From Candidatus Omnitrophota bacterium (lineage in GTDB: Bacteria; Omnitrophota; Gorgyraeia; M55B152): a stretch of 53,662 nucleotides of DNA. The stretch spans positions 1-53,662 of the forward strand of contig JAGYNU010000001.1 of assembly GCA_018399975.1 (NCBI GenBank), written 5' to 3'. The notes beneath the pieces are model-generated. The model was not told the origin of the DNA and made no database searches. It saw only the letters and a list, made by a program, of their open reading frames with translations. Every line of letters starts with the position of its first letter. Within the stretch, counting starts at the first letter, position 1. Positions 45,283 through 47,082 of this stretch are shown here, in pieces. Both the position numbers and the translations under genes were made by a program.

Positions 45283-47082
45283 TTAAACATATAAATTAAT
45301 TTTATCCTCTAAATGTTCTCTTGATACTAATCCCACTAATCTATCCTGCAATTCTCCACCTTTAAATATTGCTAACGTTGGTATACTCATAACTTGATAT
45401 TGCATAGCAAGGGAACGAGCTTCATCTAAATTAAGTTTACATACTTTCAATTTACCTTCATATTCATCAGCTATTTCTTCAACAACCGGAGTTATCATAT
45501 GGCAAGGCGCACAATTGTGGTGGATAACTCCATCAGCAACAAACATTTTAGTATCATTATTTAACATCAAAGAAATAAATTCGTAATTCCTTTTTTTATA
45601 TTTCTTAATTATTTTAACTTTTTCAAATGAAACTTTCTTAGTATCATCAGTGTATATTTTCAACCAATCTTTATAGGGCATAGCATCGCGGGGCGGAAAA
45701 GCTTCTCTTCCTTGTAGCCAGTTATTCACAATGCAGTAATTTAAATTCAATTTTTTGCTGATTTCACTAATTGAAAAATTATTTCTCATTCGAAGAACCT
45801 GTGATCTTTTTCTTCTCCTCTCGTTAATCTTTGCCAGCCTCTGTTCTAGATAAGCTTTTGCTAAAGCTGATATTATCTTTTTGGTATAGGCATATTTAAA
45901 GCCTATAGAAGCATAGGCATAAGCACTTTTAAAATCTGAACCTATCCAAATTTTTAAAAGTTTTGATTCTTTTCCGTCTTTTCTTTTATATCTATCTTCA
46001 ATTTTAATCTCTGTCTTTTTAATTTTTACTTTAAAATTATTCAAAAGTTGAGAAAGCTGTTTTGCGAAAAGTTGAGGTGATTTTTTTGCAAATGATGAAA
46101 AATGAAACTCAATTGGATTTATATTAGCAGTATTATAAGGAACTCTTTCTTTCCTTTTTATAGTTCTTATAACAACTCTAGGTCCATCACCTCCTAAAAA
46201 ACCCTGAAGAAATGCTTTTTGAACTTGTTCAGGTCCCTGTAATATCCATTTTGGAACTGTTAGTCCCTTAAAAAATTTCTTCCCTACAATTCCTCCCAAA
46301 GCTACTAATAAGATAAATAAAGAAGTTTTGGTTACTCTTACTCTATAACCAGATTGAGTAAACTTTCTACCATTGATTTCTCCCTCTTTTGACTTTTGTC
46401 TTCTAAAACTTGGGCAGAAACCAATATATTCTAAATCTCGCATTATCTCTTCTAAATCTTGCTTTCTTCCTACAAAAAATTCTACAAACCGTTCATTATT
46501 TTTAGTCATAGAAAGCGAACCATCTGTTAATAAAAATCCTATTAGATTAGCCAAAATATATGTTTTTTCTTGATTATACTTGAGAGTGAGTAATTTTTTC
46601 TCTCTTAATTCATTGATATATAATGACTTGTTTAGATTCAAATTTTTAGCCGTTTTTCTAACTTTTTTCTCAGTAAGAAACATTTTTTTACTGCCATTAG
46701 AATTAAGATAAAAATCTGCAAATAAATACGTAGAAAGTAAATCTCCAACCTGTAAATCTTCTACTTTTTTAAAACCATCCTTAGTCAGTATTAAATGTTC
46801 TGGAGTGCAAGTTAACTCTCTGTTACCCTCAGTTTTTACCTTAATCATTTGGTTAAGTATCACTCGATGTGTAGAGACAATATTGCTCTTTATCTCTTTA
46901 AAATTTTTATCAAAAGAAAGTATTTTTGAACCTCTCCTGGTTTCTTTAATATCTTTTACCTCTGGGTTGAAAATCAATTTACTTTTTGGTCCTAAACACC
47001 AAGGAGCCCAAAAATCTATCAAAACTGGCACATTAGACTCTAAAACTTCCTGTTGAAAATTTTGTTCTGTAATTTCCAGCAC
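45283..47082 (-). CDS. trxA: thioredoxin precursor interrupted by a 495-aa intein
   Basis: The exteins reconstitute a roughly 104-aa thioredoxin (...VLIDFWAPW | [31 protein letters not shown]...). Start taken at the second GTG, 8 nt after AGGAGG. Confidence 0.9.
   Translation of the reverse strand: [599 protein letters not shown]
45514..46998 (-). other. intein (Hint splicing domain plus LAGLIDADG homing endonuclease) in the Trx active site
   Basis: Cys1 ([10 protein letters not shown]), block B [22 protein letters not shown] motifs [11 protein letters not shown] and [10 protein letters not shown], terminal VIHHN, then Cys+1. Boundaries verified codon by codon: TGG|TGT at 46999/46998 and AAT|TGT at 45514/45513. 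Confidence 0.85.

Follow-up and report, generated by a model that had tools for sequence, protein, structure and literature searches.

In the window, by which we mean the whole contig of 53.7 kb that was analysed, one open reading frame encodes the two halves of a thioredoxin with 495 amino acids between them. The locus raises the question of what this insert is, whether an ordinary thioredoxin could still be made from the gene, how the insert arrived there and whether maturation of the protein could depend on redox state. Our answer to the first part is that trx of an Omnitrophota-like bacterium was very probably invaded by a mobile class-1 intein with a LAGLIDADG homing endonuclease. This reading draws on the architecture, residue conservation, fold model, empty-site allele, taxonomic distribution and the discordance between intein and exteins.

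The interrupted gene and its surroundings

The features of the locus are collected in Table 1. The gene lies on the minus strand; no strand was given in the original prediction.

Table 1. Features of the trx locus (positions in the window)
Feature	Position	Strand	Basis or remark
Sigma-70-like promoter match TTGCGA-17-TATAAT, 10/12	47155..47183	minus	upstream of trx; consensus match only
trx precursor ORF	45283..47091	minus	ORF listing; 602 aa from first GTG; stop codon 45283-45285
N-extein (beta1-alpha1-beta2)	46999..47091	minus	first stretch of the Pfam and NCBIfam thioredoxin matches
Intein, 495 aa (ORF aa 32-526)	45514..46998	minus	Intein_splicing, RtcB_rel_intein, Foldseek
Cys1 codon, block A nucleophile	46996..46998	minus	C32 of ORF; Cys in 29/29 homologs covering the column
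Block B T-P-E-H (T96, H99)	46795..46806	minus	T96, P97, H99 at least 90% conserved
LAGLIDADG homing-endonuclease domain, about aa 160-400	45892..46614	minus	AF2 fold, Foldseek; borders approximate
LAGLIDADG motif 1, LIGFLLTD190GS, catalytic Asp190	46513..46545	minus	L183, G185, G191 invariant; D190 at least 90% conserved
LAGLIDADG motif 2, LQGFLGGD302GP, catalytic Asp302	46180..46209	minus	F294, L295, G297, G300, G301, D302, G303 invariant in 32 sequences
HTH-like segment, about aa 425-463	45703..45819	minus	weak Pfam HTH_23 and HTH_28 matches; helices H441-447, H452-459 in model
Blocks F and G	45514..45579	minus	penultimate His525, terminal Asn526
C-extein, from active-site Cys on	45286..45513	minus	CAPC 45502-45513; Cys+1 = C527, Cys+4 = C530

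A second start candidate is the GTG at 47082, which has AGGAGG (47096-47091) 8 nt upstream and gives a precursor of 599 aa. The database entry (P0001) has 599 aa and begins with MLEITEQ, and the true start, judged from the sequence, is likely this GTG. The promoter match is one of a total that did not exceed the shuffled expectation in the region.

The N-extein (residues 1-31) ends in VLIDFWAPW with Trp at -1, and in the AF2 model it has strands at 5-7 and 23-28 and a helix at 12-17. The C-extein opens at residue 527 with CAPCHMITP. In an alignment of 32 homologs C527, P529 and C530 were invariant, and a profile search of the PDB aligned residue 527 with position 32 of E. coli-length thioredoxin chains, which is the first Cys of WCGPC. 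Thioredoxins superpose on the C-extein of the predicted structure with an rmsd of about 1.9 Å over 76 residues (Foldseek), and the cis-Pro loop S-I-P-T is found at aa 569-572. The Pfam Thioredoxin model matched the precursor in two stretches (1.5e-26). With TIGR01068 (cut-off 96.8) the unspliced precursor scored 107.9 bits, again in two stretches, while the spliced 107-aa product scored 121.4 bits in a single one. Conceptual excision gives a thioredoxin of 104 or 107 aa with WCAPC, and the length of about 104 aa that had been expected for the mature protein is that obtained from the GTG at 47082. The proposed insertion, behind the Trp and ahead of the first cysteine of CxxC in thioredoxin, was confirmed, and family scores, alignment and fold match agree that Cys+1 corresponds to the attacking thioredoxin Cys and that the active-site motif is present only after excision.

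The contig carries the bacterial genes SecA, Lnt, MurJ, ComEC, ClpB, Pdf, LipA/B and Lpd. Every named relative of SecA belongs to Candidatus Omnitrophota (about 60-63% identity), and the best matches of the spliced extein are intein-free bacterial thioredoxins (56-69% identical). By these sequence relationships the host is an Omnitrophota-like bacterium. Searches of the window for tRNA and Rfam families gave no matches. A downstream flavoprotein of 462 aa was considered as a partner of thioredoxin and rejected: TIGR01350 (518 bits) identifies it as dihydrolipoyl dehydrogenase. LipB and LipA come next, so that it is part of a lipoate cluster, in which the LipA gene is intact. Two syntenic contigs (L012 and L013) share with the window the gene order ARMT1-Pdf-MBL-YggS-...-trx-ThiamineBP-...-Lpd-LipB-LipA-...-QueE-QueC and have an intein-free trx of 109 aa, 70% identical and with CAPC. 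This empty-site allele supplies the comparison of the exteins with an intein-free relative that had been called for.

The window is a metagenome-style contig, and beyond the protein P0002 the nearest relatives of the intein are archaeal, which would also be expected if an error of assembly or binning had fused intein DNA of archaeal origin with the trx of a bacterium. We regard the chance of such a chimera as practically negligible. On both sides, intein and extein meet exactly in frame at canonical splice residues, and intein and bacterial genes lie together on the single contig. The same intein, with the same syntenic bacterial genes around it, recurs in an assembly made independently (Logan SRR11308164/5, L008/L009). 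The GC/GC3 values of the intein (0.294/0.212) agree with those of the contig, for which SecA (0.317/0.203) served as the comparison.

The splicing domain and the homing endonuclease

Three intein models matched the insert: Intein_splicing (Pfam PF14890; 4.3e-12, 46.5-47.5 bits against 35.8), RtcB_rel_intein (NCBIfam NF038162; 2.2e-49 over aa 32-529) and TIGR01445 (26.6 bits against 24.5). The intein predicted at this place was recovered with exactly the same borders. The TxxH block, the paired LAGLIDADG-type motifs and the end VIHHN followed by Cys were all present as quoted. In the alignment of 32 homologs, which are 28-88% identical in the intein, all class-1 catalytic positions were invariant or at least 90% conserved. 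H525, N526 and C527 were invariant, and in block F/G the residues S507, L510, N512, T514, F517, V518 and A519 were at least 90% conserved. By its Cys1, TPEH, terminal His-Asn and Cys+1 the insert is classified as a class-1 intein, and splicing is predicted from these conserved catalytic residues.

The AF2 model of the precursor (pLDDT 87.9, pTM 0.84) had its best Foldseek matches with the inteins TliVMA, PhoVMA, PI-TkoII, PI-SceI and PI-PfuI (E 8e-17 to 7e-10, probability 1.00), while a sequence search of the PDB with the intein gave a single weak match to a TFIIB intein (E 0.003). The trx intein shares with these inteins of solved structure (7qss/7qst, 2cw7, 1vde/1lws and 1dq3, respectively) a Hint domain that is interrupted by a LAGLIDADG endonuclease with two motifs, and also Cys1, the TxxH of block B and a final His-Asn with Cys behind it. 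It differs from them in identity (9-14%), in its thioredoxin host, in an HTH-like segment before block F and in block F itself, where Ser507 and Lys515, aligned by hand with the F/G consensus, take the places of the usual Asp at F:4 and His at F:13. The closest relatives outside thioredoxin are the inteins of RtcB-family proteins (NF038162) and related inteins of DPANN type in RpoB, aRF1, ribosomal protein S12 and HerA, which are 25-30% identical over about 450 aa and occupy other host genes and other target sites; against them the thioredoxin inteins form their own clade (88/100 bootstrap, neighbour joining).

The Asp at F:4 and the His at F:13 are "less conserved" assisting positions (PMC4031507), and their replacement could make splicing slower or context-dependent. 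It could also be taken as a sign that splicing was lost and that this trx copy is a pseudogene or encodes a non-redox protein. No second trx was found within the window, which is part of the genome, and another could lie outside it. We regard a dead insert as highly improbable. Ser507 and Lys515 are both at least 90% conserved within the family, which argues for function. The reading frame is open across 1.8 kb, the Shine-Dalgarno sequence before trx is strong, and the intein has a dN/dS of about 0.33 in comparison with the syntenic bacterial contig L008. Moreover, C1, the T and H of block B, the final H-N, C+1, CxPC and the cis-Pro IPT are conserved across about 50 clusters.

In the endonuclease region the AF2 model has alpha-beta-beta-alpha-beta-beta-alpha repeats and matches I-DmoI, I-Tsp061I and E-DreI (Foldseek; E 3e-7 to 1e-5, TM(target) 0.55-0.62). 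Both catalytic Asp residues are kept. The earlier assignment to the LAGLIDADG type holds for the two motifs and is joined by these structural matches, but the family score fell short, as Pfam LAGLIDADG_3 gave 19.3-20.2 bits, just under its cut-off of 22.5. The HTH-like segment, which is possibly an extra DNA-binding module, is missing from about 10 of the 32 homologs.

On this basis we propose the following course, in which homing is deduced from the motifs and the evolutionary pattern. Translation would give the 599/602-aa precursor, in which Cys1 would attack the carbonyl of Trp(-1), aided by Thr96 and His99 of block B. The thioester would be handed to Cys+1, which is to become the nucleophilic Cys in WCxPC of thioredoxin, and Asn526 would cyclise with the help of His525 and release the intein. 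An S-to-N shift would then leave an ordinary thioredoxin of 104/107 aa with WCAPC. The freed 495-aa intein would act as a site-specific endonuclease that cuts intein-less trx at the DNA coding for DFWAxW/CxPC (the slash marks the junction), and repair of the cut allele would copy the intein in. The target DNA at the junction, GATTTTTGGGCnCCnTGG/TGTGCnCCnTG, is conserved in bacterial and archaeal alleles, and the intein-less site of L012 reads GTAGATTTTTGGGCGTCCTGG/TGTGCACCATGTAATATAGTA. Since the DNA for this motif is conserved in bacteria and archaea, the element could settle in very distant hosts.

Inteins are classically found in proteins of replication, repair and nucleotide metabolism, and thioredoxin is not known to be among their described hosts. 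Neither a full-text literature search nor the main text of the survey by Novikova (2016) yielded an account of a naturally occurring intein in thioredoxin. Within that scope, thioredoxin is a new host for a known type of element, the LAGLIDADG-bearing class-1 intein.

Distribution and mobility of the intein allele

An intein at the same site was found in at least 32 further clusters at 90% identity (at least 33 with our own) from NCBI, JGI, ENA and Logan assemblies, with the same junction W/C...HN/CxPC. Among the best 150 clusters at 50% identity there were at least 18. A scan of genome contigs of GTDB species representatives, a set outside which the window's own genome lies, gave six loci, all from Nanoarchaeota, Pacearchaeota or Woesearchaeota. 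One archaeal locus (L007) carries the archaeal ribosomal proteins S19e and S8e and LSM. In a scan of metagenome contigs with the window protein, ordinary thioredoxin genes matching IDFWAPWC swamped the query, and 0 of the 80 loci kept were intein alleles. Viral contigs scanned with the alignment gave no relative, so nothing in them speaks for a viral vector.

The intein and its host gene have different relatives. Identity to the clade of P0003-P0006 is 62-67% in the intein and 33-40% in the exteins, and this excess of intein over extein is the largest of 496 pairs. P0004 is archaeal by its gene context and P0006 has the same local gene order, whereas P0003, P0005, P0007 and P0008 sit on contigs of about 2 kb and are putatively archaeal. 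Against the syntenic bacterial contig L008 the nucleotide identity of the intein is 0.92, with a dN of 0.062 and a dS of 0.19. In the same pair dS is 0.77 in the N-extein, 1.58 in the C-extein, 1.21 in Lpd and 1.29 in LipB, and it is saturated in ThiBP. All trees were built by neighbour joining, and in them the archaeal clade encloses the bacterial intein pair (bootstrap 96-100/100).

Higher similarity of the intein might also be seen if it were ancient, vertically inherited and more strongly constrained than the small, fast-evolving thioredoxin, with no recent or cross-domain transfer. In 76% of homolog pairs the intein does show the higher similarity (mean 0.54, against 0.47 for the extein), which means that the thioredoxin exteins are generally fast-evolving in this set. 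Vertical inheritance is nevertheless disfavoured and in our view very unlikely. Constraint at the protein level cannot explain the synonymous gap, which separates the intein from both exteins (from 0.8 upward) and from three flanking genes, up to saturation. An equally related syntenic genome (L012) is without the intein. In addition, the extein groups with bacterial thioredoxins and not with the DPANN exteins, while the intein nests in the DPANN clade.

The empty site in a syntenic relative, the dS gap and the DPANN nesting together indicate an element that was recently mobile, also across domains. By these sequence comparisons the intein is judged much younger than the surrounding gene. It seems to have moved between the two domains of life, and the nesting favours the direction from archaea to bacteria. 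The copy in the window would be a member of a lineage otherwise of DPANN archaea, and its entry into these bacteria would date from long after the compared bacterial lineages split.

The GC content of the intein is 0.29 and that of the bacterial contig 0.30; compared with the archaeal locus L007 it is lower (0.31 against 0.38). Such equality with the bacterial contig makes the direction from archaea to bacteria less certain.

Redox state and the splice junction

Whether splicing at this site is gated by redox state is a separate matter, compatible with the mobile intein and adding a regulatory role to it. The sole base of the idea is that three cysteines, Cys1, Cys+1 and Cys+4, lie near one another in sequence. 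A disulfide in the precursor, which might join C+1 to C+4 like that of oxidised thioredoxin or C1 to C+1 like that of the Pab PolII intein, would block step 1 or 2 of splicing. Thioredoxin would then mature only in a reducing cytoplasm, and mature thioredoxin might reduce the remaining precursor in a feed-forward loop. Redox-gated splicing is chemically plausible, but both the blocking disulfide and the maturation restricted to a reducing cytoplasm are tentative proposals that we rate as unlikely.

None of the three junction cysteines varies among the homologs. In the lineage of another contig (L010) the intein-bearing trx is directly upstream of trxB (TIGR01292, 392.6 bits against a cut-off of 343.45); because it adjoins a bona fide trxB, the interrupted gene there is the housekeeping thioredoxin. 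Precedents exist for splicing made redox-dependent by disulfides of catalytic cysteines: Cys-3/Cys1 in Pab MoaA, Cys1/Cys+1 in Pab PolII, an internal disulfide in Mma PolII and the engineered Ssp DnaE trap (PMC3922620; PMC10663303; PMC4031507). The trx intein resembles the Pyrococcus abyssi PolII and MoaA and the Methanoculleus marisnigri PolII inteins as a class-1 intein with Cys1 and extra junction cysteines. It likewise resembles M. tuberculosis SufB and M. smegmatis DnaBi1, class-1 Cys1 inteins under disulfide control, and Cys+1 is present in PolII and SufB; redox dependence in this group acts through disulfides of the catalytic Cys (PMC3922620; PMC6195587). In trx, by contrast, the additional cysteine (Cys+4) belongs to the C-extein and makes up a true thioredoxin CxxC together with Cys+1, the interrupted protein is the cell's own disulfide reductase, and redox dependence is a proposal. 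The Ssp DnaE "redox trap" also has a short Cys motif across the splice junction that locks the precursor until it is reduced (PMC3922620). That trap is artificial, with Cys-3 in the N-extein and a motif that includes Cys1, whereas the motif in trx is a natural CxxC on the C-extein side that includes Cys+1.

Several points stand against gating. Cys+1 and Cys+4 are invariant in every thioredoxin and fixed by its function, and Cys1 is the commonest, default nucleophile of inteins, so that their co-occurrence is no evidence of adaptation. No sequence signal specific for gating was seen. Position +2, which may hold A, M, P, T or G, shows no adaptation linked to the intein: that a non-Gly residue there (CAPC here, CMPC in DPANN) is such an adaptation was considered and rejected, since among 120 intein-free relatives, a sample biased by word seeding on the query, 62 had CAPC, 28 CMPC and 25 CGPC. 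Recent horizontal spread with an intact endonuclease is the pattern of a selfish element. The related genomes are MAGs of DPANN archaea and Omnitrophota, and if these groups mostly inhabit anoxic environments, as is assumed, the gate would seldom close. Cysteine-based redox inhibition is also not universal even within class-1 inteins (PMC6195587). The wider claim, that thioredoxin maturation is a self-reinforcing redox switch portable between archaea and bacteria of one habitat, is distinctly unlikely.

If that claim were true, the precursor would be locked through the future active-site cysteines (C+1-C+4 or C1-C+1) and unlocked by mature thioredoxin/TrxR or a reducing cytoplasm, and the supply of disulfide reductase would be set post-translationally by redox state. 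It would then be a natural and portable redox-conditional intein. The locus offers a testable case of conditional splicing, in which the +1 nucleophile is the catalytic Cys of thioredoxin in a natural CxxC and the host protein is itself a redox effector; an intein of this sort could serve well as a tool.

Thioredoxin, a small redox protein and not a replication, repair or ATPase protein, means a new class of host for inteins. The allele is widespread in public data, where dozens of examples are unannotated, a point absent from the original prediction. Likewise absent from it were the bacterial nature of the host, in contrast to the DPANN archaea that harbour nearly all near relatives of the intein, and the younger age of the intein compared with its gene. 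With its empty site, an at least five-fold synonymous gap between intein and flanks and its archaeal nesting, the trx intein gives a clean case of what seems to be recent cross-domain spread, and this transfer would link two groups of ultra-small, probably host-attached microbes, the DPANN archaea and the Omnitrophota.

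Structure of the precursor and the intein family

The original prediction had described an intein within a thioredoxin. Its borders matched residues 32-526 exactly, and every motif it quoted ([27 protein letters not shown]) is present in the ORF. The N-extein (residues 1-31) ends with VLIDFWAPW, and the C-extein opens with CAPCHMITP at residue 527. The thioredoxin match in Pfam (1.5e-26) is broken into two stretches, and the insert matched Intein_splicing with 46.5 bits (cut-off 35.8); the whole insert was also matched by an intein-containing RtcB-family model of NCBIfam (2.2e-49). 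As a single stretch, the conceptually spliced product of 107 aa reached 121.4 bits on TIGR01068, the equivalog model of thioredoxin (cut-off 96.8). When the family profile was aligned with PDB chains, residue 527 corresponded to position 32 of E. coli-length thioredoxins, the first Cys of WCGPC; therefore Cys+1 is the attacking Cys of thioredoxin, as had been proposed. Translation probably begins at GTG 47082, which is preceded by AGGAGG at a distance of 8 nt; the precursor then has 599 aa, the same length as its database copy (P0001). This start also gives a mature thioredoxin of 104 aa, in agreement with the length of about 104 aa suggested before.

Coordinates of the thioredoxin precursor, its intein and related loci
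Feature	Location	Strand	Remark
Thioredoxin precursor ORF, 602 aa	window 45283..47091	minus	single ORF (ORF listing)
Insert (intein), residues 32-526	window 45514..46998	minus	starts [10 protein letters not shown], ends VIHHN
Helix-turn-helix-like segment, ORF aa about 425-463	window 45703-45819	minus	between endonuclease and block F
Spacer, 177 nt	window 47092-47268		at the place of the ArsP_2 gene of L008 and L012
ArsP_2 permease and ArsR-type HTH_5 genes, L008 (syntenic, with intein)	194-1610		between yggS and trx
ArsP_2 permease gene, L012 (syntenic, without intein)	4579-5616		between yggS and trx
Intein of archaeal locus L007	10184-11665
Divergent intein locus L010	686-3636		intein 32% identical, host CGPC, trx-trxB operon; adjoins ParE/Phd toxin-antitoxin pair
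P0006 on L014	8001-10088		C-terminal FTR-like domain

A search of 5.8 billion proteins gave at least 33 clusters with the same build, and in all 32 aligned clusters the insert separates Trp from the first Cys of CxPC. Cys1 was kept in 29 of 29 homologs. In the 32-sequence alignment H525, N526, C527, P529 and C530 are invariant, T96, P97 and H99 are each at least 90% conserved, and the two LAGLIDADG motifs are likewise conserved (D302 invariant, D190 at least 90%). Because the junction is common to independent assemblies from four sources, a chimera is ruled out. The helix-turn-helix-like segment is cleanly absent in about 10 of 32 homologs; it may act as an optional module for DNA binding.

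With the intein alone as query, HMMER found 615 relatives in a full scan of 1.84 billion representatives, and the best 150 of them include at least 18 further thioredoxin-intein clusters with identical junction, most with canonical CGPC. In other bacteria this site holds inteins that are more divergent (28-36% identical); the trxB beside the interrupted trx of L010 is bona fide, and the L011 intein is accompanied by PcrA, bacterial-type TIM and LCP transferase. P0006 is a thioredoxin-FTR fusion, likewise interrupted; its added domain resembles the ferredoxin-thioredoxin-reductase catalytic subunit (PF02943, motifs CPC...CPC...CHC).

Bacterial host and age of the intein

The contig carrying the interrupted trx is bacterial. 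It encodes SecA, Lnt, MurJ, ComEC and ClpB, as well as Pdf, LipA, LipB, Lpd, QueC and QueE, and all named relatives of its SecA are Candidatus Omnitrophota (about 60-63% identity). The closest matches to the spliced extein are ordinary 105-aa bacterial thioredoxins (56-69% identity). The top one, P0035, lies without intein on contigs L012/L013, which share the gene order of the window over at least 11 genes (protein identity 53-70%); their trx is the empty-site allele. A second syntenic pair, L008/L009, carries the intein. L008 also has an ArsR-type HTH_5 gene between yggS and trx.

The dS comparison of the window with L008 shows that the intein is far younger than its host gene. Its dS was 0.19 (dN 0.062, 92% nucleotide identity), against 0.77 for the N-extein, 1.58 for the C-extein, 1.21 for Lpd and 1.29 for LipB, and was saturated for the flanking ThiBP gene.

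In the window, the minus strand carries 40 of 43 ORFs of at least 150 aa, and the GC skew, profiled over 42000-50000, is negative throughout; a single replichore in which gene orientation is strongly biased would fit this.

Archaeal relatives and probable transfer between domains

Among 185,579 GTDB species representatives there are six thioredoxin-intein loci, all in DPANN archaea (Nanoarchaeota, Pacearchaeota and Woesearchaeota). One archaeal locus, L007, carries archaeal ribosomal proteins and an intein 66% identical to that of the window. The intein of the window was also compared with the clade P0003-P0006, in which P0004 is archaeal by context, the local gene order of P0006 is that of P0004, and P0003 and P0005 are unverified. 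Inteins of the window and this clade are 62-67% identical while the exteins are 33-40%, the largest intein-over-extein excess of all 496 pairs. In NJ trees the window and its bacterial partner P0002 are nested inside this clade (96-100/100 bootstrap), and thioredoxin inteins are apart from related RtcB, S12 and aRF1 inteins (88/100). The DNA encoding DFWAxW|CxPC is nearly identical among all bacterial and archaeal alleles; therefore one endonuclease could have targets in both domains.

The nesting favours transfer from archaea to bacteria. GC content, which also bears on direction, is equivocal: it is 0.294 in the window intein, like the contig (0.298), and 0.31 in the L007 intein against 0.38 for the whole locus. 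Other relatives, about 25-30% identical, interrupt unusual hosts, including ribosomal protein S12/S23 (P0304, P0310, P0312) and release factor aRF1 (P0303); further hosts are RpoB/Rpb2 (P0279, P0296), RtcB (P0283, P0308) and HerA (P0309). These sequences suggest that LAGLIDADG inteins related to this one form a large pool.

Predicted splicing, possible redox gating and significance

The AlphaFold2 model from the 32-sequence alignment was confident (pLDDT 87.9, pTM 0.84). Its top PDB matches are the endonuclease-bearing inteins TliVMA, PhoVMA, PI-TkoII, PI-SceI and PI-PfuI (E 8e-17 to 7e-10), followed by the LAGLIDADG enzymes I-DmoI and I-Tsp061I, and its C-extein matched thioredoxins at about 1.9 A. 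In the manually aligned block F, Ser507 and Lys515 take the places of the usual Asp and His. Both are conserved across the family, and these positions vary among inteins (PMC4031507). The anatomy, conservation, fold model and evolutionary pattern observed here best support a standard class-1 intein. It would splice out of the precursor, by chemistry that we infer, leaving ordinary thioredoxin, and would spread by homing through putative DNA cleavage.

Cys1, Cys+1 and Cys+4 are adjacent in the precursor, and some inteins depend on redox state via disulfides at catalytic cysteines, such as Pab MoaA, Pab PolII, Mma PolII and the engineered Ssp DnaE trap (PMC3922620; PMC10663303). However, thioredoxin function and the default chemistry of inteins already require all three cysteines, and finding them is therefore not a specific signal. 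The +2 residue is not peculiar to intein-bearing alleles either, and redox sensitivity is not universal among Cys inteins (PMC6195587). Physiologically meaningful redox gating of splicing is unlikely in our judgement; it is easily tested. In 17 of the 32 exteins, all DPANN-type, a Cys directly follows the cis-Pro (IPC, not IPT; column of residue 572), a third cysteine beside the active site of the folded thioredoxin.

We found no description of a natural thioredoxin intein in the full-text literature, where subscription journals are incompletely covered, and neither the Novikova 2016 survey nor the Anaeramoeba intein paper mentions one in its main text. In databases the homologs are labelled as no more than 'thioredoxin domain-containing protein' or 'intein/homing endonuclease'. 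Thioredoxin is a new host for a known kind of element, of which this intein is a new member; its mobility across domains and its insertion at a redox-relevant site add to its interest.
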